Of a stretch of DNA of 51,156 nt, positions 163 through 51,156 are shown piece by piece. Position numbers and translations under genes: made by a program. Below the pieces are notes generated by a model. The model was given only the letters and a program-made list of their open reading frames with translations, did not search any database and was not told where the DNA came from. Positions within the stretch are counted from its first letter, which is position 1. Each line of letters begins with the position of its first letter. The stretch covers positions 1 through 51,156 of the forward strand of contig JBBSYO010000017.1 of NCBI GenBank assembly GCA_038045185.1, given 5' to 3'. Origin of the DNA: Nanobdellota archaeon (lineage in GTDB: Archaea > Nanobdellota > Nanobdellia > Pacearchaeales > GW2011-AR1).

Positions 163-726
163 TTATGACTTGGATGCTTCAGTCATCTTCTTTTCGGGGA
201 CGATTTCAAGGATGCGGATTTCGCAGAAGGCAAGAGGATAAACTTTCTTGAGCTTGTAGGCCAGTTCTTTTTGAATCTTGTTTGCAGTCACGTCTGAGAA
301 TATCTCTTCAGCCGAGCGGACTTTGCAGTAACCTTCAATAAATTTGTGCGCTGTTTCTCGCAGTTCGTTTCTTATAGCGCGAGAGACGCGACGTCGTGTG
401 AGAAGAAATGGCTTTATTCTAATGCGTGCGTCCTTGCAGTCAAGCTCGAACGAATCCTCGATATAATCGGTGCCCTTGCGGATTGCTTTGCGCAGGTAAC
501 TTCCGAGCAGTTCGAGTGAGATGGGTGTGCTTTCGAGGGCACCGTTATTGTTGTGTATCTTGGCGCGCAGCTCAAGACTTTTGCCACGAAGGCTTTTCGT
601 CAGGTCGATTTTGACTACTTGGTTTTCAAACTGTTCGACTGTATGACCGTAGACATGCACCTTTGCTGCGGTGAGGGGGACGCTCACTTCAAAAAACTTT
701 TTACGAACGCTTTTTATCTGTGCCAT
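163..726 (-). CDS. rps3ae: 30S ribosomal protein S3Ae (eS1)
   Basis: Basic 187 aa protein with RKGTDYIEDSF and KKVYPLAFCEIR motifs typical of archaeal S3Ae. Confidence 0.9.
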   Translation of the reverse strand: MAQIKSVRKKFFEVSVPLTAAKVHVYGHTVEQFENQVVKIDLTKSLRGKSLELRAKIHNNNGALESTPISLELLGSYLRKAIRKGTDYIEDSFELDCKDARIRIKPFLLTRRRVSRAIRNELRETAHKFIEGYCKVRSAEEIFSDVTANKIQKELAYKLKKVYPLAFCEIRILEIVPEKKMTEASKS

Positions 727-727
727 G

Positions 728-1057
728 TTATTTTGCTATTTTTTCTCCTATTTCCAAGCGGGATGTGCGAATGCTCTTTTTAATTCCTTTTGATTTTTTG
801 CATGTCGTGCAGGTGTAGAGGATGCCGAGACGCTTGGTTGATTTGGATTTACGCTTCCAGCTTTTAATTGGCGGCTTAGAGAATCTGCCTAAATTTCCGT
901 AGCCGACACCCTGGCCTCTTAATTTAGCCCGAGAACGCGACCATCGCGACATGGGGTGCGCAGATGAACGGCCTTTTTGCTTGGCGGCTGCGATTGTCTG
1001 GCTAGTATGTTTCTTACAATAAGGGCAGTATCGTGTTACTTTCTGTGGTAGTTTCAT
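728..1057 (-). CDS. rpl44e: 50S ribosomal protein L44e (eL42)
   Basis: MKLPQKVTRYCPYCKKHT...YTCTTCKK zinc ribbon. Start placed at the MKLP ATG (1057). Confidence 0.92.
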   Translation of the reverse strand: MKLPQKVTRYCPYCKKHTSQTIAAAKQKGRSSAHPMSRWSRSRAKLRGQGVGYGNLGRFSKPPIKSWKRKSKSTKRLGILYTCTTCKKSKGIKKSIRTSRLEIGEKIAK

Positions 1058-1167
1058 TATGTGCAGGAGATAAGCGTTCGCCGCAGCGGTCTGCATGCAT
1101 ACGGGTTGTTACGCTTCTTACGCAGGGAAAAAGAGGTTTTTAAATGTTCTGAGAGTGTTCGGAAAAC

Positions 1168-1419
1168 TTAATGTCTTCGATATCCCACAACTTTATCGCC
1201 GTGGTAGATGGGAACTTCGGTGGCTTTAGAGGATGAGCTTCTCCGGCGGGAGACGAATAATCCGCCGATGACGATTAGAACGATGCCGCCGATGATTAGA
1301 TAGAGTTCAGTGATTTGTGCGGGAAGCGCGATGCCAATGAGTGTGCGAACATAGGCATAACTGAAAGCTATGGCTGCTATGCCGAACGCTACAAGAATAT
1401 AACCCAAACCTCTTCGCAT
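1168..1419 (-). CDS. small two-TM membrane protein
   Basis: Two hydrophobic helices and a C-terminal EVPIYHGDKVVGYRR. TATA-like TTTATATA lies about 25 bp upstream. Confidence 0.7.
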   Translation of the reverse strand: MRRGLGYILVAFGIAAIAFSYAYVRTLIGIALPAQITELYLIIGGIVLIVIGGLFVSRRRSSSSKATEVPIYHGDKVVGYRRH

Positions 1420-1611
1420 ATTTTAGGAAAGTGCTTGCGGTATATAAATCTCACGGCAGCTGTTGATACCCCTTCTTGTCTTGGGTGCTTCTGTCGGGCT
1501 TGCGTTTACGGTTTGACAATCGATTTTCCTGCTTTTTCCTTATACTGAGAAAATTATGCGCGCGTACCCTGTCTACTTTAATTCGTCAGAAAGAGCGCCT
1601 AATTTTCACGG

Positions 1612-1684
1612 TGCAAGCAACTTTCTTAAAAAGGAAAGTTGCTGCACAGAGAATTGAAACATTTAATCAATTCTCTTGTGCTCA
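1612..1684. repeat. palindromic module pair, inverted copy of part of the 38337-38559 composite
   Basis: 1639-1684 is the reverse complement of 38381-38426 with one mismatch. It is preceded by the hairpin AGCAACTTTC..GAAAGTTGCT. Confidence 0.9.
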
Positions 1685-1862
1685 ATAACCACAACAACAC
1701 GCAACTTACTTTAGGACTTACCTTAAAATAAAGTAGCAAATTTTAGGGAGTTTTAAAGGAAAAATATGTCTAAAATTTAACAAGTTATTGTTAGGTTCGC
1801 CCTTAGTGAGTGGTTCTTGACACAAGACAAACAATTTTAAACTATTGGGCTACTGGTAGAGA

Positions 1863-2125
1863 ATGGGTGAAGAAAAAGAGGAGACGCATATTGCTATTTT
1901 TAATGGAAAGGTAATAAGAAGAAAATTGATCGGGGATAAATAGTATTTCTCGGTTGTTGATGTTGTAGGTGTTTTAAGTGAAAGTGAAGATCCAAATGAT
2001 TATTGGTACAGATTAAAAAAGAGAGAATCAGAAGCTAGCAAAACCCAGCTATCGACATTTTGTCGACAACTGAAGTTAAAATCTAGTGATGGAAAGGAGT
2101 ATGAAACGGACTGTGCCGATAAGAT
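1863..2125 (+). pseudogene. Bro-N domain (antirepressor-like) pseudogene
   Basis: Manual translation: MGEEKEETHIAIFNGKVIRRKLIGDK*YFSVVDVVGVLSESEDPNDYWYRLKKRE..LSTFCRQLKLKSSDGKEYETDCAD. TAG at 1941-1943 sits where Trp is expected, and the gene is truncated afterwards. Confidence 0.8.
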
Positions 2126-2279
2126 TCGTGCATATTTTAATCTAGTTGGCAGTTCCAATTTAAGACATATAGTCAGATTCCATGAACGTTTTTCAGAAAG
2201 CAATACCTTGTATCAAAAAGAAGTCGTTAATTACTACCAAAAACCTTTTTATAGGGATGTTGAGTTGCCTTTTAAGATT

Positions 2280-2350
2280 GGCCTTGTAGTATAATGGTAG
2301 AACGATCCCTTGACGTGGGATAGACCGCGGTCCGATTCCGCGCAGGGCCA
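2280..2350 (+). tRNA. tRNA-Val(GAC)
   Basis: GGCCTTG/CAGGGCC acceptor, anticodon arm ATCCC-TTGACGT-GGGAT, atypical T-loop TCCGATT. Confidence 0.9.
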
Positions 2351-2418
2351 TTTATATAATCGGGGATATTTTTTACATTGCATAAATTTGCGAAGCTTAG
2401 AATACTTTATAAATAAAT

Positions 2419-3117
2419 TTATTTTGTACAATAACAGACTAACTTATCTTTCTCACAAGTATTAGAAGAATAGTCCATACTTCTTTTGCCACAAATCTCT
2501 CTACAACTTTTTTGCTTCATATCAGATATTCCTTGAGATTCTCCTAATGCCTCTAAAGATGCACAACTCTTGTATATATCTTTCCAGAATCCATATTCAT
2601 CCATCTCAGATGGGACAAGACGAACTGTGCTAGAAGGTTGATAAATCTTTGAAGAGCCTATTTTGCTTGAATTAAAAAAAGAAAAGCTAAAATTTCCAAA
2701 TTTAACAGGATTGAAAGAATTAAATTTTACATTATCGTATGTAGAAGTTATATTCTCAATTACTTTATCTTGGCTGAAGAAAGCAAAGAGTAATAAAAGT
2801 ACTATACCAATTCCAATTAACAATTTTGTGCCATTATTAAATCCTCTAAACCAATATTTAAGATTTTTGCAAAGATGCCATCCCTTTCTTATTACAAAAA
2901 ATAATGTAGCCAAAAGAATAAGAGAACCAAATTTGATAAAGATAAGGGTGATTTGATTTAGCTTTTCAACATTATTATAAAGTATTAGAAGCACTAATAT
3001 GAAACCTATAAATTTAAGTAAGTCGTGAATAAATACCGTCTTATTTAGTTTGCTATGCGGGTGTTCCTTTTCTAAAAACCATTCTTTAAACCTGTCATAA
3101 AGATTAGGTTCTTTCAT
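2419..3117 (-). CDS. membrane protein with Cys-rich C-terminus
   Basis: Three TM segments and a C-terminal CREICG..C..VCYC. Lies directly downstream of 3119-4387. Confidence 0.75.
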   Translation of the reverse strand: MKEPNLYDRFKEWFLEKEHPHSKLNKTVFIHDLLKFIGFILVLLILYNNVEKLNQITLIFIKFGSLILLATLFFVIRKGWHLCKNLKYWFRGFNNGTKLLIGIGIVLLLLFAFFSQDKVIENITSTYDNVKFNSFNPVKFGNFSFSFFNSSKIGSSKIYQPSSTVRLVPSEMDEYGFWKDIYKSCASLEALGESQGISDMKQKSCREICGKRSMDYSSNTCEKDKLVCYCTK

Positions 3118-3118
3118 T

Positions 3119-4387
3119 TTAATAAATCATATTTGGGAAGTACTTAAAGGTAATGAAAAGTAAAACAGTAACTCCAACCAGAAACATGACAGTTCCCTTT
3201 TTATTTAGATTAGTAATGATGGCATAGACAAGTTTGACTGTGTTAGAGAATAGATAATAGTAAAATAATCCATTAATAACAACATAAAATAAATAATAGC
3301 CTCCTCCAATTCCATTATTCAGCAATTCTATTAAAGCAGAAAACCAATCTTGAACGCCACCAATAAATAAGTAGTGTAAAGAAAAGTTTTGATAATAGAC
3401 ATAATCCAATCCTAAACCAATCAAAAGAGCTATACAGAATTGAGTTAAGGCGCCTTTTATTTCAGAATCTAAACTAAACGAGAATAAGTGTCTAAAAAAT
3501 CTCTTTGTTTTATAAGATGTGTGGGAAGAATGAAATGATTTAGTAATTTTTCTTCCGTGAGGATTATACATTTCAACCTTTTCATCTTCTTCATCCCAAT
3601 AATTTGCTGTAGCTGGATAATTATCTTTTTCTTCATAGTCATAAGATTTGTGAATTTTAGTAGAAGGTGTATGCATAGAAGCATATCTTTTGCCCCTAGT
3701 TATCAATAATCTATCTAAAGCTTCTCCATACCTTTCATTTTGCTCTTTAGCCATTTTTTGAAAATGCTCATTGTATCCTATGCAAGGGTGAGCATTTTTG
3801 TTATTTGCTTCTTCTTGTAAATCTTGGGATAATTTATTATAATCGTTAAAATTCTTTAATCCAGCAGGTCTAGCTTTTATGTGTTCTGAACAAAAATATC
3901 GCTCACAATACTTACATTGCTCCAGTTTTCCTTTAGTATGTTCAGTAACTTGGAAATAATTACAATGTTTTTTGTCGGGCTTTGATGGTTTATGTTTAAT
4001 ATGTTTAATCTTTTGTAAGTCTGATTCGCTAAATGCCGTGATTCCTACACCTGTTGGCGGACGCCATGAAGAAGCCATTAATTCTTGGTGAGTATTATGA
4101 AAAGAATCGCTATGGTCTGGATGTTTAAGATGAGTAACTTCATGAGTAGCAGTTTCCATAATCTGCTCATCTGTGCGTTGTTCAAGCCTTCTCTCAGAAA
4201 TACAAATCATGTAATTATCATGGTGACAATGGGCTATTTCATCAGGGCTATATTGTTGATAAGGGCATTCCCAGAATTTAACAACAGGTTGTTTAACTCC
4301 TAATTTATCGGCTGATTCCATGACGGCTAACTTAAACTTTTTCTTCTTATCTTTCAAAAGACCTTCCTTAAAGTCTCTATTTTCCAT
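3119..4387 (-). CDS. zincin-like metallopeptidase domain + AN1-like Zn finger + C-terminal TM helices
   Basis: HEVTH (HExxH) motif, CKYCERYFCSEH and a hydrophobic C-terminus. Confidence 0.75.
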   Translation of the reverse strand: MENRDFKEGLLKDKKKKFKLAVMESADKLGVKQPVVKFWECPYQQYSPDEIAHCHHDNYMICISERRLEQRTDEQIMETATHEVTHLKHPDHSDSFHNTHQELMASSWRPPTGVGITAFSESDLQKIKHIKHKPSKPDKKHCNYFQVTEHTKGKLEQCKYCERYFCSEHIKARPAGLKNFNDYNKLSQDLQEEANNKNAHPCIGYNEHFQKMAKEQNERYGEALDRLLITRGKRYASMHTPSTKIHKSYDYEEKDNYPATANYWDEEDEKVEMYNPHGRKITKSFHSSHTSYKTKRFFRHLFSFSLDSEIKGALTQFCIALLIGLGLDYVYYQNFSLHYLFIGGVQDWFSALIELLNNGIGGGYYLFYVVINGLFYYYLFSNTVKLVYAIITNLNKKGTVMFLVGVTVLLFITFKYFPNMIY

Positions 4388-4889: not shown

Positions 4890-6732
4890 AAGAGGGCAGG
4901 TAGCTATTTTTGTAATTATTGCGGTTGTGCTTGTTGGAGCTATACTTGTTGCTGTGGCTTTTCGTGAGCGTATTTTTACGAAGAGTGTGCCGAGCGAGCT
5001 GCAGCCTGTGTTTGATTATTATACTGCGTGTATTGAACAGGAAATGCGGGGAGCGATAGAACTTGCGGGTTTGCAGGGAGGAAGAATTGAGCTTGGTATT
5101 TATGAGCCGGGAAATGATTATGCACCTTTCTCTACGGAGTTGCAATTTTTAGGAACACGCGTGCCGTATTGGTCGCGTGTAAATGCACGAGGTAATTTTG
5201 TGCAGGATGTGCCGACACGTGTTGAGATGGCGAATGATATGGGGGGGTTTGTGAAAGACGGTTTGTCAAGATGTGACTTTAGCGCGTTTCGGGAGCAGGG
5301 ATTTGATGTGACTCTTGATGTTAGCGATGTGGATGTTAGTGTTGAAGATTCGCGTGTGAACGTGGATGTTAGCTCGCGTTTGAGTGTGAGCAAGGGAGAT
5401 GCTTCAGTGAGCCAGAGCAGCCAAAGTGCTGTTGTAGAGTCGCGTTTGGGGGCGATGCATACGCAGGCACTTTCGGTGTATAATAATGAACAGCAGGAGC
5501 TATTTCTGGAGAGGTATGCTGTTGATGTGCTAAGGAGTTATGCACCTGTTGACGGCGTGTCGGTGCGATGCAGTCCTGAAATCTGGCGCACGGCAGATGT
5601 TGTTCAGAATCTTACGGACGCGCTCGTGGCTAATATGGGCCAGATTCGTTTTGAGCGCACGAAACGTTCTGGGAGCGAGGGATACTTTACAGTGACTGGC
5701 GTTGGTGATGTGCCTGCGCGCATTGTGTATGCAGGCGAGTGGCCGCATAGAATTGAAATAACTCCTGCTTCGCAGACGCTGATGATAGCAGAGCCAGTTG
5801 GCAACGAGCCGGGCATGGGCATTCTGGGCTTCTGCTATGCGCCGTATCATTTTGTGTATGATATTAATTTTCCGGTAATGGTGCAGCTTTATGATGGCGA
5901 TGAAGTGTTTCAGTTTCCGCTTGTTGTTGTGGTAGATGATAACGTGGCTCGGGCATCTAGTGGAGGGGGTATAACTTTGGCGAATGATACAGATATCTGC
6001 AGTTTCAAGGAAGGAAATGTGCATGTGGAAAGTTACGACAATTCACTCAGGGCTGTTGAAGCATCTGTTCGCTATCAGTGTTTTGAGCAGGTGTGCGATG
6101 TTGGCGAGACTGAGATACGCGATGGTGTCGCTTCTCTTGATGCTGCTTTACCGGTGTGTGTGAATGGTCAATTGATTGCTGAGTCAGAAGGATATGTGCG
6201 TTCGAGTAAATTGTTTTCGTCTAATAGTGAGACGAGTGCAGAATTCATTCTTGAGAAGAGTTATCCGATGCGTGTGAATGTGAAGGTTGATGGGAGAGAT
6301 ATTGTTTTGGGGAGCAGTGCGATTGTGCATTTTACTAGTGTTGATGGAACGGCAAGCGCTTTGATACCTGAACAAAATTCTATTGAGTTGCATGAGGGAT
6401 ATTACAATGTGAGTGTGTTTGTGTATGGAAACTCGAGTGTGACTATTCCTGCTTCGAGCCGCCAAGAGTGCGTTAAGGTGCCGAGCGGAGGCATTGCTGG
6501 CTTGTTTGGAGCAACGCGCGAAAATTGTTTTGATGTTACATTGCCGGCTACAAATGTGGATTATGCATTGCGCGGAGGAGGCGTCGGCGCGAGTTATATT
6601 CTTGCTTCTGAGCTGGAAGATGGGATAATAAATTTGTATGTTGCTTCTTTGCTTGAACCGCGCTCGCTTGAGCAGCTGCAGACTAATTTTGAATTGTTTA
6701 ACTCAATGGATGTGGAGATGGATTTCGGATGA
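4882..6732 (+). CDS. large pilin-like / surface protein with class III signal peptide
   Basis: MNKRGQ|VAIFVIIAVVLV is an archaeal prepilin-peptidase-type leader. Beta-rich body with paired Cys. Confidence 0.8.
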   Translation: MNKRGQVAIFVIIAVVLVGAILVAVAFRERIFTKSVPSELQPVFDYYTACIEQEMRGAIELAGLQGGRIELGIYEPGNDYAPFSTELQFLGTRVPYWSRVNARGNFVQDVPTRVEMANDMGGFVKDGLSRCDFSAFREQGFDVTLDVSDVDVSVEDSRVNVDVSSRLSVSKGDASVSQSSQSAVVESRLGAMHTQALSVYNNEQQELFLERYAVDVLRSYAPVDGVSVRCSPEIWRTADVVQNLTDALVANMGQIRFERTKRSGSEGYFTVTGVGDVPARIVYAGEWPHRIEITPASQTLMIAEPVGNEPGMGILGFCYAPYHFVYDINFPVMVQLYDGDEVFQFPLVVVVDDNVARASSGGGITLANDTDICSFKEGNVHVESYDNSLRAVEASVRYQCFEQVCDVGETEIRDGVASLDAALPVCVNGQLIAESEGYVRSSKLFSSNSETSAEFILEKSYPMRVNVKVDGRDIVLGSSAIVHFTSVDGTASALIPEQNSIELHEGYYNVSVFVYGNSSVTIPASSRQECVKVPSGGIAGLFGATRENCFDVTLPATNVDYALRGGGVGASYILASELEDGIINLYVASLLEPRSLEQLQTNFELFNSMDVEMDFG

Positions 6733-14327: not shown

Positions 14328-14485
14328 TGCGGGGAATAGTCCTCGCGGACTAATCTTGACTTTCTCTCGCTGCGGGCTTTTTCGCTTTGCCACTGCGCAA
14401 AGGATAAACTTCTTCTCTTGCTGCGCGGTTCCTCGTCTCGGACTGCGGACCTGCTCGCTACGGAAGAAGTTTATGCGGGGAATAG
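14328..14485. repeat. 12-bp direct repeat of the tRNA-Leu 3' end enclosing a 134-bp GC-rich hairpin insert
   Basis: TGCGGGGAATAG at 14328-14339 and 14474-14485. Internal stems AAACTTCTTC/GAAGAAGTTT and GTCC/GGAC. Confidence 0.75.
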
Positions 14486-14557
14486 GATTCGAACCTATGT
14501 AAGCACTAAGCTACTTGGTCCTAAGCCAAGCCCGTTTGACCGCTCCGGCATCCCCGC
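14474..14557 (-). tRNA. tRNA-Leu(TAG)
   Basis: GCGGGGA/TCCCCGC acceptor, anticodon arm CTTGG-CTTAGGA-CCAAG, long variable arm, T-loop TTCGAAT. Confidence 0.95.
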
Positions 14558-14639
14558 GGCATCTTTCAAGAATTTGCAGGGTTTTAAAGGTTTAGCTTGT
14601 TTTCCTATAATTTTTTAAACCCTGCTTATTTAAATTTTC

Positions 14640-15410
14640 ATGGGGTCTCAATCTTTTGAAAGAAATGGTTTGGAAAATGGTTACTCATTCAGACCGCGCG
14701 CATCCAACGGCAGTGTTGGAACGATAGAGGGACGCAGATATGCTGAAGAGCGCGATGCTTTAACTGCAAAAATAGCGGATTACGATGTTCGCATAGTTAA
14801 ATCTGTTTCAGATGGAAGACCTATGTCTGCTCTTGCTTATTGCCGCTGGAGAAATCATTATCAGCATGCTTTTGAATCCTGCAGAAATGCTTTCATTGAG
14901 GCAAATATTCCTTTAGTGCTTTATACGTTTGCTAGATGGATCCGCAGGCAAGGAGGAATTTCAAGGGGGCTGAATTCAGATGAAATTTTATTAGACGCGC
15001 ACCCTACGCTTGTCCGCGCAGCAAATTTGTTTAATCCTGCGAAAGGGCGTTTTTCTACTTATTGCGTTCCTGCTCTGTTAAGAACGTTTGACCGCAAGAA
15101 CAAGAGGGAAGAGAGGTTAATGTCGCGCAGAACCCCTCTTAATGAGACGCCTGATTCATCTACCTGCTCACCTTATCAGCAAGCGGTTGATGCAGAAGAG
15201 AGGACGAATAGACGAATGCTTGTGCAACGTGCGTTTGGCTGCTTATCTCCTCAAGAAATGGAATTGATATCTCTACGTTTCGGAGTTAATCCAGGCAATC
15301 AACGACTTACTCACCGGCAAATTGGAAATTCGTGGGGCTTGGCGCATCAACGAGCTTGGCAGGTGGAAAGAAACGCTCTTGCTAAGCTTAGAAGTGAGAT
15401 AAATGGCTGA
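14640..15410 (+). CDS. sigma-70 family-like protein (regions 2 and 4)
   Basis: FIEANIPLV...LVRAANLFNPAKGRFSTY matches region 2. LSPQEMELISLRFG..LTHRQIG..GL...RAWQVERNALAKLR matches the region 4 HTH. Confidence 0.85.
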   Translation: MGSQSFERNGLENGYSFRPRASNGSVGTIEGRRYAEERDALTAKIADYDVRIVKSVSDGRPMSALAYCRWRNHYQHAFESCRNAFIEANIPLVLYTFARWIRRQGGISRGLNSDEILLDAHPTLVRAANLFNPAKGRFSTYCVPALLRTFDRKNKREERLMSRRTPLNETPDSSTCSPYQQAVDAEERTNRRMLVQRAFGCLSPQEMELISLRFGVNPGNQRLTHRQIGNSWGLAHQRAWQVERNALAKLRSEING

Positions 15411-15444
15411 TTCGTTGAATGCAATGGTTGGCGTTCTGGATTCT

Positions 15445-16162
15445 TCAGCCATAATTATTCGTCCTTTTTCTTTTTTTAGTCCATATCTTGAAAATGTCAG
15501 GTCTTACTTCGCCCCTTATATCTGGAACATACGTATGTCCTGCTTCAACTTCGTTTTCTAATTCTCTTCTTTCTTGATTTACTTGCGTTACCAACCTTGA
15601 AAATCCGTCCCCCCCGCTATTCCTCGCATCTGTTTGGGCAGGATGTTTATTTTTTAAGAGCGTTTCTCTGACCATCTCATCAAAATGCGTTTTATTCGGC
15701 AATTTGCCTTCTGTTTTGTTATATTCGCTTAATGCCTGAAACATTTTATGGAAATCTCCTGTGAATTCATAACCTGTCTGCGTTAATGCCAAACTTATAC
15801 ACTCTAAAGTCTGAATATCACGTCGAGTTGCTGCATAAGGCGCGGTCGATCTTACTATTGATTTGATGTCAGAAATGCTGGTTCAAACCGCGCCCTTTAG
15901 GGCGCCGCATTTCTGAGCATCCAAAAGTCCACACAAACCACACCCCTTAGGGTGTGGTAAAACTCATGGACTTTTTGATATTTGCTATTTGATAATGGGC
16001 AGGCAGTCTGTTAAATTGTTTTTTTTGATATGCTCTATCGATTATACCTGTGAGGATTTCCAAAGCGCTATCTTGATTAGAATATACTTTAGAAACTCTT
16101 CTAGCAAATTCGTGCAGCCTTGATATTTCTCCTGGTTTATTGAACCATTTTTCTTTATGCAT
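15445..16162 (-). pseudogene. hypothetical gene (about 201 aa) split by a 112-bp palindromic insertion
   Basis: Deleting 15868-15979 fuses ORFs 15947-16174 and 15445-15792 in frame (..QIANIKSIVRSTAPYAATRRDIQTLECISLALTQ..). Confidence 0.75.
15868..15979. mobile_element. nested-hairpin element (family B)
   Basis: TCAGAAATGC..GCATTTCTGA followed by CAAAAGTCC..GGACTTTTTG, each with an inner CCYTTAGG hairpin. Shares an identical 23-mer with 38445 and 51088. Confidence 0.85.
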
Positions 16163-16222
16163 AGAAATTGTCAAAAATTCTACTATATAAAGTTTCCCAT
16201 GTTATCACTTTTAAGAAGTGTT

Positions 16223-23100: not shown

Positions 23101-25309
23101 GGCTTCTAATGTGTGGTTCTATAATGGTAGTGCAAACGAAACTTATACTGGCGCGGGATATCGCACGTTTGCAGAGGGAAGCACTATGCTCGTTGCGTAT
23201 GCTAATGATAGCTTTGGCAACATTAATAGCACGAGTGCAACATTCACAGTTCAATTGGTAAACAATACTGCGCCAAGCGTCGTGTTAAACGCACCTGTTT
23301 CTGAGGCGATTATAAGCGTTAATGATTCGCTTCTTGCAAGCGTCATGCTTAATGCGAGCGTCTTTGATGCAGATGGAAATAATCTAAGCATATGGTTTTA
23401 TGGAGATAATGCGCTACTGGATACTTTTAATGCGACTGCAGTCGGGACGTTTGCTTATAATTGGACTGGTCTTTCTAAAGGGAACCATAGCTGGAATGTA
23501 GTCGCGTTTGACGGATATGTCAACGGCAGCTCTGCCGGAAACTTTAGCGTCAATATTACCATTGACGCACCACTTATTTCTATTAGTTCGCCTATCCTCT
23601 GCTCTGTGTTCGGAACTAACGAAAGTCTTTCTCTTAATGTGGATGTTAATTCCAGTTCGCTTGATTCGTGCTGGTACAGCCTCACTTCAGGAAGTTTGAA
23701 TATCTCGCTTGTTGATTGTCAGACTACGAGCTTTGATGTGCCTCAGAGTGGGAGCTACACTCTTGACGTGTATGCTAATGAAAGCGTTAACGGACAGATA
23801 GGGCACGCCGCCGTGGGCTTTAATGTTGATATTGATGCTCCGACTATTATTGTGGACAGCCCTCTCAATAATACATACACTAATCAGACACCGCTTTCAT
23901 TCAGCTTCTTTACAGAAAGTTATAACGGCGAACAAACACAGCAGTGCAGTTTGCTGGGCGATTTCACAGGCAGTTATGGACTGAATCAGACAAACAGCAC
24001 AATCTCTTCTGGAGATATTAATTCGTTTTTGCTCAATCTGGTGGAAGGGCGTTATGCCTGGGCTCTGGCGTGCGGAAACGCTATAAAAAATACTACGCTC
24101 TCTTGCAATTATTCAGTTGTTTCAGATGTGACTCCGCCGAATATTACTATTAGTGAACCTAATGGTACATATACTAATGGTTCTGTTCCTGTGAGTGTTG
24201 ACGTGGAAGACAATTTAGCTAATATGTCTAATCAAGGATTATGCTTATATAATGTAAGCCTGATTTCTGGTGTGCAGGTTATTAACGCGACGATTCTTGC
24301 TTCATGCGCTTCTTCTGCGCTTACAGCCTTAGAGGACGACAACTACCAGCTTTTACTTACGGCAAGCGATGCTGCGGGCAACACGCAGACTGAAGCGTCG
24401 CAATTTAGTGTAAGTTCTTCGGCGTCTGGTTCGCCTGGCGGAGGAGGCGGAAGCGGTGTTGGAACTGGAACGCCTGGTTTGACTGGATTTACACGTCTTA
24501 ATGTAACTGCTCCGAACCCTTTCTATATCAAGCGTGGACAGGAAGAAGTTTTTAAAATAAGAATCACGAATAATGGTCAGCGCTTTTTGAATAAGTGCTC
24601 TCTCAAATTTAGCGGAGACTTTGCGCGTTATCTTAATGCGTCTGGTGAAAGCTCGCTCAGCTCTGGTCAAAGCTATGATTTTGATGTGGGCATCGCTCTT
24701 GCCAGCGATGTAGTGCCAGGGCAGTATGGGATACAAGGAAGTGTTGCATGCGACGATTACTCTTCGCAGTTTAGCATGATTGTTATTGTGACGCCGACTG
24801 AATTCGATTTTAGATTTGGCAGTTATGAGAGAGAGGTTGATGTGCTTCGTGTCAGTTATCAGTTGGAAGAGCTTGTAGGCCGCAGGCAAACAATTTCAAT
24901 TGCGTATGAGCTGATTAATCTTGATTCAGTGAGTGTTGCAGAAGGCAGTGAAGAAGTTACGCTCGTTCCAGATACCGAACAGATTGGAGTTCTCGAGATA
25001 TTCCTGCCCAAAGATGCGTTTGGAGAATTTAATTTGCGTCTTTCTTTGGATAATGGCCGCGAGTCTCTTGATGTGGAACGGCAATTGTTCCTTTCTTCCG
25101 CAGGTTTGACAGGTTTAGTCATTTCTGACGAGAATCGCCGTGTGCTGACGTGGCTCGTGGTTGTATTATTTATTGTTGCGATATTTGTATTTGCGATACG
25201 ATATGTCTATAAGCATTATCAGCTTGCGCATTATCATCCGCCGAGGCGCATCATGCATTATCCCAGATTTCATCATAAAAATCATCACAGGAGCCAGCAT
25301 GCGTCGTAA
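20186..25309 (+). CDS. giant surface glycoprotein: LamG domain + Ig-like repeats + C-terminal TM anchor
   Basis: Signal peptide, LamG motifs WYHIVFTY and FDGIIDEVSVYNRSLS, repeated NSTETR/D.AGN modules, many N-x-S/T sequons, Gly linker, TM and His-rich tail. Confidence 0.9.
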   Translation: MRIKERLAVGLLLLVLGTFSVYATMVFDSSAGDFNAGTFKNTFYNISGFVQLNASQTTGNFTSRIFDALANATWNNISWTTRVCYGCQLVNNRGTESGFAHNVNMAGNVFLLHLNNTIGENATFFRDFSGNALNGTCITNRCPAFTANGKFGGAYDFENSGSFDDVINFSNPSALNNFSSEITLEAWIRSESWPNGGAPTVIDKDFARQYSLYFVDSGSSDFLQTDLVTSNGVARITGTFDHSSAVWYHIVFTYNGSEMRLYSNGLPDGSAVSHNGTVNSSAKDFLIGSGWNGNNPYAFPFDGIIDEVSVYNRSLSEQEVADHYERGVLRLNLSARSCDDAACLGESFSDVNDSSPQQLAVSTNRYFQYRTVFDTGDVNYSPSLYNTTVYYTASNTAPRLNITSPLNQSYGLANLDLNYSASDAEGNLDSCWYSTNDGATNTTVACGTNVSLIALEGNNNWMVFANDTLGSSNLSRVTFFVDSLYPLIAFGAGTPANGSYLTQNSLYVNTSWNESNFASISFELLNATGTINQTVFANARNNINWIGLADGIYFYDVSINDSLSHTNSTETRTVVIDTIFPEIFFAPPSDANWGTLTHNFILVNVSANDANFANITLNFYNSTGLVNQTTSQASSIFSNYSGLADGNYSFNATVFDLAGNINSTETRTIRVDAGFPIITINSPQNSTYNSLPIVFNVSVNEDAAFCNYSLNSGANVSMSTLDFRVFTATNMSMTDGGYNVHYSCGDLAGNINLTSVTFSLDRAAPAVSIIYPLNTTYSVAPSELNYTVSDVNSITCWYTLNEGVINTSVVCGANVSGLSASQGSNIWRVYANDSAGNLNSSSVTFSFEGSIPVIDFVAPTENNGANLSTAQIRVNVSASDSNLERIVVRLYNSSGLVNSTSFSSSPADITFFNLNDGIYSFNASANDTVGNINSTETRGVTLDSTPPLVVINSPQNTTYYNATILVNISSNGASNVWFYNGSANETYTGAGYRTFAEGSTMLVAYANDSFGNINSTSATFTVQLVNNTAPSVVLNAPVSEAIISVNDSLLASVMLNASVFDADGNNLSIWFYGDNALLDTFNATAVGTFAYNWTGLSKGNHSWNVVAFDGYVNGSSAGNFSVNITIDAPLISISSPILCSVFGTNESLSLNVDVNSSSLDSCWYSLTSGSLNISLVDCQTTSFDVPQSGSYTLDVYANESVNGQIGHAAVGFNVDIDAPTIIVDSPLNNTYTNQTPLSFSFFTESYNGEQTQQCSLLGDFTGSYGLNQTNSTISSGDINSFLLNLVEGRYAWALACGNAIKNTTLSCNYSVVSDVTPPNITISEPNGTYTNGSVPVSVDVEDNLANMSNQGLCLYNVSLISGVQVINATILASCASSALTALEDDNYQLLLTASDAAGNTQTEASQFSVSSSASGSPGGGGGSGVGTGTPGLTGFTRLNVTAPNPFYIKRGQEEVFKIRITNNGQRFLNKCSLKFSGDFARYLNASGESSLSSGQSYDFDVGIALASDVVPGQYGIQGSVACDDYSSQFSMIVIVTPTEFDFRFGSYEREVDVLRVSYQLEELVGRRQTISIAYELINLDSVSVAEGSEEVTLVPDTEQIGVLEIFLPKDAFGEFNLRLSLDNGRESLDVERQLFLSSAGLTGLVISDENRRVLTWLVVVLFIVAIFVFAIRYVYKHYQLAHYHPPRRIMHYPRFHHKNHHRSQHAS

Positions 25310-38336: not shown

Positions 38337-38559
38337 ATGTCACGAACGTTAAAACCTTGTCCTTTAGGACAAGGCGTTCGTGAGCACAAGAGAATTGATT
38401 AAACGTTTCAATTCTCTGTGCAGCAAATCGTGTTCGATTTGCTTGCATCCAAAAGTCCACACAAACCTCGGCTCATCAAGAATCTCAATTCTTGACTGCC
38501 ATCAAGAACCATAGGTTCTTGAGGTTTAAGCCGAGGTGAACTCAAGGACTTTTTGATAT
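38337..38559. mobile_element. composite nested-hairpin array (family B plus the module shared with 1612-1684)
   Basis: At least eight stems, including TCACGAACG/CGTTCGTGA, CCTTGTCC/GGACAAGG, AGCAAATCG/CGATTTGCT, CAAAAGTCC/GGACTTTTTG, CCTCGGC/GCCGAGG and TCAAGAA/TTCTTGA twice. Confidence 0.88.
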
Positions 38560-50370: not shown

Positions 50371-51063
50371 ATGGGCGATAAACTTGTGGATGTAATTCGT
50401 GACGGCGAGATTGTTACAGTGAGCGAAGCGCAGGCACGCGCCGAGGATTTGTTTATTCTGCGCGAGAGGCACGCTCCTCCTGCAGCGCCAGCGCCCTTGA
50501 CTGGACATCCTGCTTTGCGAACAACAATTCCGGTTCGTGCGACTTCTGCGCAGAAAGCAGTACCCAGATGGCATAGTTATCAGCCTGAGTATACAAAGAA
50601 TAATGTGGCTAAGGAGTTGATTGATAATTTCCATTGGGAGATTGGGAAGGCGCGAAGAGAGCGAAATATGACTCGTTTGCAAATGGCGAATGCGCTCAAT
50701 ACGAATGAAGGCATTATCAAGATGCTTGAAAATGGTGAATTGCCGAGCGATGATTTTGTACTTATCAATAAAGTGCAATCTTTTTTGCATATTAATCTAC
50801 GACGCGATGGCAAGAGTTTTGACGCTTCTGCGCGGGCGCAGCTTTCTTCTTCTTTACCTGCGCCAAGTGCTAGTTCTGCTACTCCTCCTGTGGCAAAGCC
50901 GCACTATGACGCGAATATTTCCCTAGCTGAATTGCAGCGCATGAAGGCGCGTGACGCGCCTGTGCGTGAAAAACCAAGATGGGTAAAAGATAAACCATTT
51001 GAAGAAAGAAGGGGCTCTTTGTTTGGCGAGGATATTGAGATTATTGGATCAAAAAGTCCTTAA
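50371..51063 (+). CDS. aMBF1-like HTH protein
   Basis: ELIDNFHWEI.KARR...T..Q.A......IKMLENG.LP HTH. No Zn-ribbon Cys. The stop codon lies in the downstream element. Confidence 0.8.
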   Translation: MGDKLVDVIRDGEIVTVSEAQARAEDLFILRERHAPPAAPAPLTGHPALRTTIPVRATSAQKAVPRWHSYQPEYTKNNVAKELIDNFHWEIGKARRERNMTRLQMANALNTNEGIIKMLENGELPSDDFVLINKVQSFLHINLRRDGKSFDASARAQLSSSLPAPSASSATPPVAKPHYDANISLAELQRMKARDAPVREKPRWVKDKPFEERRGSLFGEDIEIIGSKSP

Positions 51064-51156
51064 GTCTTACCACACCCTAAAAGGTGTGGTTTGTGTGGAC
51101 TTTTGGATGCTCAAGGAACGACACCATCCTAATGGATGGTGTTTTCTGTCAAGTTC
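51048..51156. mobile_element. nested-hairpin element (family B), reverse orientation, runs off the window end
   Basis: 51088-51110 is the reverse complement of GCATCCAAAAGTCCACACAAACC. Inner hairpins CCACACC/GGTGTGG and ACACCATCC/GGATGGTGT. Confidence 0.88.

Follow-up and report, generated by a model that had tools for sequence, protein, structure and literature searches.

A 112-bp palindromic element that splits a gene in a DPANN archaeon belongs to a mobile family with a putative, naturally variable DNA guide

Introduction

The palindrome-associated transposable elements (PATEs) of Haloquadratum walsbyi and other haloarchaea are described as too short to encode a transposase and as lacking both inverted terminal repeats and target duplication; palindromes near both termini, a targeting sequence of 4-5 nt on the 5' side and heterogeneous families are given as their marks, and small repeats are reported to insert into their near-terminal palindromes (PMC3119063). 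Here we compare with them, and with a few other known systems, a 112-bp palindromic element that interrupts a gene of a Nanobdellota archaeon from groundwater. It lies in a stretch of 51,156 nt (contig JBBSYO010000017.1 of assembly GCA_038045185.1, positions 1 to 51,156 of the forward strand), which was analysed as a whole and is called the window in what follows, and its relatives are scattered over a genome of ~0.9 Mb (909 kb in 84 contigs), referred to as G000, with C-numbers denoting G000 contigs unless stated otherwise.

Two insertion sequences (IS) of the IS200/IS605 type are likewise relevant. ISDra2 of Deinococcus radiodurans is reported to insert 3' of TTGAT and to restore the interrupted gene upon excision (PMC2806898). 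The cleavage sites of IS608 (TTAC on the left and TCAA on the right) are described as not being read by the protein but as pairing with a guide tetranucleotide on the 5' side of each subterminal hairpin's base, such that A+16 pairs with T-3 and A+17 with T-4, and retargeting of IS608 by a change of the guide has been done by engineering (PMC5934647). The Rickettsia palindromic elements (RPEs) are reported as short palindromic repeats of a reduced genome that are found in frame in protein genes and add a peptide to the product (PMC10969869), and high densities of MITEs (short for miniature inverted-repeat transposable elements), detected via inverted repeats, are reported for some DPANN genomes (PMC11602168). 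A description of the present family was not found in the literature searched on DPANN MITEs, on Rickettsia palindromic elements in connection with archaea, and on Pacearchaeota repeats, hairpins and transposases.

An interrupted gene and its intact homologue

By direct reading the element occupies 112 bp (15868-15979) with TTTGAT at 15862-15867 and again at 15974-15979 (the features of the window are collected in Table 1). As it stands, the N-terminal open reading frame (ORF) of the interrupted gene continues for 10 codons within the element before it reaches a stop at 15947, and deletion of the 112 bp fuses 16162..15980 (61 aa) with 15867..15445 (140 aa plus stop) into a protein of 201 aa. 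When the C-terminal fragment was used as query, two proteins were returned out of 8 candidates, P0001 and P0002. The latter is an uninterrupted, metagenome-derived protein of 196 aa, of which residues 1-61 are identical to the N-terminal fragment in 43/61 positions and residues 62-194 to the C-terminal fragment in 89/135, and the alignment runs through the junction, between YQIAN and IKSI, without gap or overlap. The colinear course of P0002 through this point shows that both ORF pieces belong to one gene, cut exactly at the edges of the element. The proposal of an earlier note on this DNA, made from the letters of the window, that two ORFs are the halves of one gene rather than unrelated genes and that removal of a two-hairpin insert of 112 bp restores the frame of a 201-aa protein, is thereby borne out. 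P0001 (112 aa, 97% identical to the C-terminal fragment) starts at the same internal residue, which suggests that it derives from a close strain carrying the same break.

As regards the gene itself, all Pfam matches were under cut-off, and PHROGs and NCBIfam gave none. Among 41 related genomes (G000 included) it was found in G000 only, and it was not found in the 500-nt flanks on either side of the gene for transcription factor B (TFB) at 80 related loci. Pattern scans of metagenome and genome contigs with P0002, which could have supplied empty-site DNA for the window copy, gave no confirmed relative. In the groundwater DNA runs X1 and X2 contigs enter the element from each flank, and the site is thus filled; a flank-to-flank joint was not seen in the contigs of these two runs, which break at the repeat, and the groundwater runs X8 and X10 are without cover beside the element.

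The window copy lies antisense to the gene. Its length of 112 nt cannot be divided by three, and a TAA falls within it in the frame of the gene, so that the gene is truncated as the DNA stands, and it would probably have lost its function through the insertion; the break itself is an ordinary insertion mutation. Two other copies, on C60 and C56, have exactly the left module of the window copy (52 bp), and this identity, together with the fact that both gene halves are still open, makes the insertion look recent. The earlier description of the family as actively spreading finds indirect support in the identity of these three left modules and in the empty orthologous sites of two other copies (see below); for the window copy itself, neither an empty-site allele nor a circle junction was seen.

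Table 1. Positions of the split gene, the element and its parts, and the further family copies in the window
Feature	Position	Strand	Remarks
Split gene, N-terminal fragment	15980..16162	-	61 aa from ATG at 16162
Split gene, C-terminal fragment	15445..15867	-	140 aa + stop
Host target / left cleavage site TGAT (T-K-A-T)	15864..15867	+	abuts element 5' end; flank conservation, host-coded Ile-Lys
Non-autonomous PATE-like element, 112 bp	15868..15979	+	antisense to split gene; fold, covariance model
Left module	15869..15916	+	outer stem TCAGAAATGC (15869-15878) with GCATTTCTGA (15907-15916); guide and inner hairpin inside
Proposed left guide CAAA (NAAA)	15884..15887	+	first base C complementary to G of TGAT target
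Inner left hairpin GCGCCC-TTTA-GGGCGC	15890..15905	+	proposed IP-L (transposase binding hairpin); fold
Right module	15919..15979	+	outer stem ATCCAAAAGTCCA (15919-15931) with TGGACTTTTTGAT (15967-15979); fold, covariation
Right-module guide CAAA	15934-15937	+	inside right outer stem
Right inner hairpin CC-ACACCC-CTTA-GGGTGT-GG	15938-15957	+	fold
Right cleavage site TGAT	15976-15979	+	final four bases of the element itself
Second family copy, 219 bp	38339..38557	+	two extra hairpin modules; hairpins nested in right inner loop; flank GTAT
Third family copy	51048..51156	-	left end cut off by contig end

Structure and distribution of the family

Folded as single-stranded DNA, the window copy forms two long stems with a small hairpin inside each and CAAACC 5' of each hairpin, at a DNA folding energy of -35.5 kcal/mol against -13.3 +/- 2.46 for shuffles (z = -9.0, with 0/200 shuffles as stable). 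A 23-mer of the element is repeated exactly at 38445 (+) and 51088 (-), just as had been noted earlier, which gives 3 matches in the window against 0.00 expected. Covariance model R1 scores the window copy at 112.6 bits (E = 3.6e-21), and an Rfam scan of the window returned 6 tRNAs only, with no match at the element.

Copies in G000 were located by blastn and motif scans, which gave 34 exact occurrences of GGACTTTTTGAT and, with a looser pattern, 36 right ends, plus the window copy. The 25 copies that are delimited at both ends measure 68-331 bp and hold no transposase ORF, so that the family is indeed non-autonomous, as had been proposed. All 25 start with GTCA, and 24/25 end in TTTGAT, the remaining one in TTTGAC; the conserved 3' end of the element is CTTTTTGAT, and the two ends, GTCA... 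and ...CTTTTTGAT, are not inverted copies of each other. The layout is modular. A left module, consisting of an outer stem TCA...TGA around AAACC and a small hairpin, is followed by GC, then by 0-2 optional simple hairpins, and finally by a right module, in which an outer stem ATCCAAAAGTCC...GGACTTTTTGAT again surrounds AAACC and a small hairpin. Both inner hairpins are of the same polarity (AAACC-stem-YTTA-stem) and on the same strand, and some copies have additional short hairpins nested in loops.

The fold is upheld by covariation in an alignment, A1, of 17 two-module copies from 3 genomes with 37 consensus pairs, in which 96.6% of the cells are paired, as compared with 31.6-48.8% when the partners are slid by 1-3 columns. 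Compensatory double changes are found in 19/37 pairs, against 0-3 pairs when slid, and by part of the structure such changes occur in 4/8 pairs of the left outer stem, 7/7 of the inner left hairpin and 4/10 of the right inner hairpin.

A covariance model built from A1 and run on the 41 genomes gave 53 matches in G000, 49 in G032 (a member of another family of the same order), 11 each in G019 and G021, 7 in G016, 3 each in G005 and G037, 1 each in G002, G003 and G006, and 0 in the other 31/41, these counts being lower bounds as several contigs end within copies. The expectation of a multi-copy family was thus correct, and its patchy spread over 10/41 genomes is as expected of a mobile element. 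The host had likewise been correctly placed in the DPANN group, since close TFB relatives are labelled Woesearchaeota, Pacearchaeota or Nanoarchaeota. DPANN genomes are among the smallest and densest cellular genomes, and G000 nonetheless harbours some fifty copies of a hairpin element. The lengths of 15/25 complete copies are multiples of three, or 11/20 when distinct lengths are counted, and the copies share ancestry; a length bias towards multiples of three is in this light no more than suggestive.

Short simple hairpins of the form TCA-N6-8-loop-N6-8-TGA, single or chained, are nested in several copies (C53:18531-18759, C20:52523-52679, C23:14760-15190, C20:22089-22419 and window 38339-38557), either within the loops of inner hairpins or within the right outer stem, on its left arm. 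As they are not placed at T-K-A-T, they may constitute a second repeat class that targets the first, like the SMR-A repeats in Haloquadratum PATEs. On C22 (reverse strand, near reverse-complement position 24628) a right end ...CTTTTTGAT is directly followed by GTCAAG..., which is another copy's left end. Each right end finishes in TGAT and thereby recreates the target, which would explain head-to-tail pile-ups of repeats.

Target site, absence of duplication and insertions in genes

The four bases immediately to the left of the 25 complete G000 copies are T in 24/25, G or T in 24/25, A in 24/25 and T in 24/25 (T-K-A-T), and TGAT and TTAT account for 21/25 left flanks against a genome frequency of 1.3% for both words together; the right flank of these copies is unconserved. 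A left flank of T-K-A-T is also seen in copies from G032, G019, G005 and G016.

Two further copies permit filled and empty sites to be compared. At C22:65047-65154 a 108-bp antisense copy constitutes an in-frame insert of 36 aa in a MacB/FtsX permease, where it separates the periplasmic domain from the FtsX domain, and the insert is missing from 8/8 aligned orthologues, the alignment leaving out G007, where the gene is cut by the contig end, and G025-G027. At C28:6264-6824 (-) a Nudix hydrolase gene is interrupted at 6468-6575 by a copy of 108 bp, which lies in sense orientation and brings two TGA codons into the frame. In 2/2 aligned same-genus orthologues, G005 and G001, the gene runs on without a break, PF[HY] directly preceding TNVHS. 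In all three comparisons of filled with empty sites (P0002, MacB and Nudix) the insert is GTCA...TGAT exactly and T-K-A-T codes host residues; in the window the TGAT at 15864..15867 codes an Ile-Lys that is also present in P0002 and is hence host DNA. Since the insert has exactly these limits and T-K-A-T is host-coded, the insertions appear to lack a target duplication, although comparisons made at the protein level do not strictly exclude a 2-bp duplication of AT. The TTTGAT that had been reported from both junctions is indeed present at both, because the target TGAT, preceded by TT, coincides with the invariant 3' end of the element. The right copy is this conserved end and not a target-site duplication.

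About 5/25 complete copies lie inside genes, and 2 of these break the gene, namely the window gene and the Nudix gene. The other three, in MacB, in an MCM intein and in an unannotated ORF on C81, are antisense, have lengths that are multiples of three, are open in the host frame and read IKKSLS...NVRD. The copy in the MCM intein (C44:1704-1847) is in frame and adds 48 aa to the linker between the splicing and LAGLIDADG domains. The element can be silent where it lies between genes, extend a protein by a peptide or inactivate a gene.

Covariation of guide and target

The base 5' of AAACC or AAACT in the left module, which is the first of the NAAA standing just 5' of the CC at the foot of the inner hairpin, varies among copies and tracks position -3 of the flank. 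The two are Watson-Crick complementary in 45/53 copies, the permutation mean being 26.5 and 0/100,000 permutations reaching 45. Guide base C is found in 12 copies, all 12 with G at -3, guide base T in 2 copies, both with A, guide base A in 38 copies, 31 of them with T, and guide base G in 1 copy, which has T. The rule holds for 21/23 copies in G000, for 13/16 in G032 (p = 0.003), and for 24/30 in the copies outside G000 taken together (p = 0.0003). It is also obeyed within one subfamily of G032 (GTCGGAAATT...), three copies of which show the target/guide combinations TAAT/T, TTAT/A and TGAT/C. The base that covaries with -3 lies 16-20 nt away inside the element, no other flank position is comparable to -3, and the invariant second guide base, A, stands opposite the near-invariant T at -4.

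Copies without AAACC or AAACT in the left module received no guide call, and the test set aside five anchor-bearing copies from G021 (of 6 compared, a seventh locus, L198, being unused) on account of an uncertain left boundary; 5/5 of these match at the chosen boundary, and L197 becomes a mismatch when the boundary is placed one base earlier. At the right end TGAT goes with guide base C in 36/43 copies, and one copy from G002 has TTAT with guide base A, the p of 0.14 reflecting too little variation for a test. The covariation on the left matches the guide/cleavage-site rule of IS608, and it strongly supports the link to HUH Y1 enzymes of the IS200/IS605 type that had been drawn earlier from the shape of the hairpins.

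The candidate transposase

G000 has one Y1 transposase gene, intact and on C30, and its only other transposase is a partial DDE_Tnp_1 on C54; the window is therefore free of transposases, as had been stated, and IS110, rve and DDE_3 transposases were not found in G000. The C30 TnpA scores 84.7 bits against Pfam Y1_Tnp and 87.1 bits against NCBIfam transpos_IS200 (NF033573, cut-off 55), and it fails the model for tyrosine transposases associated with repetitive extragenic palindromes (REPs; NF047646), with 35.5 bits against a cut-off of 80. The gene is situated in a 708-bp IS, the bounds of which were obtained by comparison with a homologous copy in G032, where the IS is multi-copy. At its right end this IS reads GAAA-CC-(branched hairpin closing ...CTTTAGGG...)-GG, with a TCAT end 12 nt later, a layout as in the inner hairpins of the element and one in which the pairing of G with C fits the guide rule; the left end has the hairpin CCAGCC-TTTTA-GGCTGG. 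G032, which alone among the other genomes has ~50 copies of the element, possesses the same TnpA subfamily (at 62% identity) together with four fragments of it. A blastn-short search of the genome with the ends of the C30 IS retrieved no element copy and one solo right-end remnant (C61:14214-14240), and an autonomous parent with the ends of the element was not found in G000. The search for a TnpA with matching ends, as suggested in the earlier note, thus yielded an intact enzyme, but in an IS with dissimilar termini, which have only the hairpin layout in common with the element.

Two sets of apparent candidates were rejected. A PF07282 match on C79 does not represent a TnpB, as it belongs to a Cas12f2 effector (676 bits, cut-off 450) beside a CRISPR array, and the right ends on C68, C41 and C61 that have no left end close by do not represent IS copies, those of C68 being partial elements that follow paralogous genes for surface proteins. 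The Cas12f2 (Cas14-type) effector at C79:1411-3033 (-) has 541 aa and is followed by the array with its 37-nt repeats, and a Pfam domain search by itself would label it TnpB. On C68 (reverse strand 260-4200) there are three paralogous genes for secreted or surface-type proteins of ~240 aa each, of which paralogues one and two have the same partial right-end module downstream. In G032 an element copy on contig C7 of that genome (~1700-1990) abuts a 5'-truncated copy of an IS200-type tnpA; the left flank of this copy (CATGTTTTTTAT) matches an intact tnpA paralogue and the right flank does not, an arrangement that suggests an insertion followed by a deletion.

Genomic context of the split gene

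The split gene lies between a tRNA gene (14474-14557) and TFB, together with a gene (14640-15410) whose product of 256 aa carries a sigma-70 region 4 domain and has sigma-factor matches in PHROGs. A bacterial-type sigma domain is an oddity in an archaeon, and the stretch of the window from 14474 to 16174 may be a small inserted island.

Discussion

The element in the window is a real and precisely inserted mobile element of a known kind, namely that of PATEs and of the IS200/IS605 group. We consider it probable, at roughly 0.7, that the family has ends of the IS200/IS605 type and is moved by a Y1 TnpA. According to this proposal, each end would present a subterminal hairpin, both on the same strand, with a four-base guide (NAAA) in front of it, and the guide would pair with a four-base cleavage site, which on the left is the T-K-A-T of the host and on the right the last TGAT of the element. 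A Y1 HUH TnpA supplied in trans would then cut both sites on single-stranded DNA, the donor would be sealed without a scar, and the circle would be pasted 3' of a new T-K-A-T, an outcome with neither duplication nor inverted ends. In the window the element would in this manner have been inserted 3' of TTTGAT, antisense, into an accessory gene of 201 aa. That the C30 enzyme itself is the mover is a reasonable but unproven idea, to which we would give slightly less than even odds.

A number of observations weigh against this proposal. No empty-site DNA, insertion polymorphism or circle junction was seen. The guide rule is broken by 8/53 copies, all 8 with guide A or G, and weak signals also appear at right +2 (p = 0.008), at -6 (p = 0.02) and at -8 (p = 0.04); moreover, the anchor motif AAACC/AAACT was picked after the G000 copies had been viewed, so that the copies from other genomes serve as the check. 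One or both inner hairpins are missing in some copies, such as the 68-bp copy at C32:2361-2428, and the short hairpins nested in loops are not located at T-K-A-T. With regard to the C30 enzyme, the left end of its IS does not obviously obey the NAAA rule, and there is no blastn similarity between the termini of the IS and any element copy, the hairpin motif alone being shared, for which reason the element cannot be called a deletion derivative of this IS. Furthermore, enzyme and element do not always occur together: in G013 the TnpA subfamily (57% identity) is not accompanied by any match to the element, and in G021 and G016, with 11 and 7 such matches, there was no TnpA hit, all three being incomplete genomes.

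Among the alternatives, the one that fares best, although we regard it as unlikely, holds that the copies are host repeats akin to REPs and bacterial interspersed mosaic elements (BIMEs), which would be bound and occasionally copied by a domesticated Y1 enzyme of the REP-associated tyrosine transposase (RAYT) type or by host factors, and might have a role for the host in termination, in mRNA stabilisation or as nucleoid sites; the window gene would then have received its copy by accident. Hairpin arrays and modular pile-ups are present as this would have it, G000 has a single TnpA gene, and the right stem is followed by a T5 run similar to an archaeal termination signal. The enzyme however scores as IS200 and not as REP-associated, and it resides within an IS that has multiplied in G032. 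The distinct left and right ends and the flank-specific target are likewise in poor agreement with host repeats, as are the copies inside MacB and Nudix genes and the patchy occurrence among relatives. REPs carry a conserved GTAG 5' of the hairpin, and GTAG is absent from the consensus of alignment A1.

If a Y1 TnpA moves the family, the gene breaks might also be reversible, scarless excision by the enzyme restoring the genes in part of the population, and the family might then act as a set of on/off switches for accessory genes. This idea stems from the scar-free manner of insertion and excision, from the intact halves of both split genes (window and Nudix) and from a genome too small for much regulation, and we find it a shade less probable than host repeats. 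In a bolder version, ribosomes could hop over the 112 nt between matching AUC-AAA codons.

It is less probable again that the copies are MITEs of the cut-and-paste kind, with GTCA...TTTTTG as the element proper, a 2-bp AT target duplication and a DDE transposase as the mover. AT precedes the element in 24/25 copies and ends it in 24/25, and a DDE_Tnp_1 gene exists on C54. However, terminal inverted repeats are absent, it is solely on the left side that conservation reaches -4 and -3, and covariation of -3 with an internal base 16-20 nt off is not predicted by a DDE mechanism; in addition, no enzyme of the IS630/mariner type (DDE_3) was found in the genome, and no part of the element matches C54.

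Archaeal EndA recognises a bulge-helix-bulge, in which two 3-nt bulges at the splice sites are separated by a 4-bp helix. Removal or skipping at the RNA level that keeps the gene working, be it by EndA or by ribosomal bypass between AUC-AAA codons, is the least probable explanation and was already disfavoured, as regards EndA, in the earlier note, for although both halves of the gene are still open, the Nudix gene is split equally cleanly and AUCAAA stands at both junctions on the mRNA strand, RNA folds of both split-gene transcripts with 40-nt flanks gave no bulge-helix-bulge but junctions at the feet of fully paired hairpins with exon flanks unpaired with each other, the matching hexamer follows from the target and the conserved end, the junction codons of the Nudix gene differ (UAU vs GAU), and the three copies tolerated within genes have lengths divisible by three and no stop in the host frame, as expected if inserts stay in the mRNA.

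Movement by a Y1 TnpA thus supplies a testable mechanism for the family. What is new here is the split gene with its intact homologue, the split Nudix gene, the use of T-K-A-T without duplication, the covariation of guide and target, and a candidate TnpA, and the points of interest are the family and its naturally variable DNA guide more than the gene break. For annotation, recognising the inserts prevents split or extended gene calls in genome bins of Pacearchaeota and Woesearchaeota.

Comparison with known systems

Like the hairpin repeats that are linked to RAYTs in proteobacteria (REPs, BIMEs and REPINs), the present copies form clusters and are associated with a Y1 HUH enzyme. They differ from these in that the TnpA is under the NCBIfam cut-off for REP-associated enzymes, in their asymmetric ends and in not being confined to extragenic DNA.

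The likeness to the RPEs, as these are described, lies in the in-frame inserts, which amount to predicted peptides of 36 aa in the MacB permease and 48 aa in the MCM intein. RPEs are however bacterial, their sequences are unrelated, and they are mostly intragenic, as against about 5/25 copies here, of which 2 are gene-breaking; the window family furthermore has defined ends of the IS200/IS605 type.

The family fits the published definition of a PATE, as far as this is set out in PMC3119063. It shares with PATEs a length too short for a transposase, the lack of inverted ends and of duplication, the terminal palindromes, the 5' target and the heterogeneity, and the extra hairpins within inner loops are reminiscent of the insertions into PATE palindromes. 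It is set apart by its host, a DPANN archaeon with a ~0.9-Mb genome, by a second, outer stem that reaches the very terminus and encloses each subterminal hairpin with its guide, and by optional hairpin modules between the ends and copies in frame inside genes. Whereas some Haloquadratum PATEs are described as clear deletion derivatives, no parent IS with matching termini was found here.

The closest mechanistic parallel is with IS608 of Helicobacter pylori and with ISDra2. Like these, which are directed to TTAC and TTGAT, respectively, the family is inserted 3' of a short sequence, here T-K-A-T and often TTGAT. It also has subterminal hairpins on one strand and a putative guide 5' of the hairpin base, of which base 1 would pair with -3 and base 2 with -4, and the seamless excision by which the two IS restore a gene may be counted as a further likeness. 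IS608 and ISDra2 are however autonomous (with tnpA, and with or without tnpB) and their mechanism is proven, as opposed to the sequence covariation on which the comparison is based here. Unlike theirs, the guide of the present family is naturally variable (CAAA, AAAA or TAAA) within one family, and a single mobile family would thus appear to have been retargeted in nature, to TGAT, TTAT and TAAT, respectively, by single-base changes of a DNA guide.

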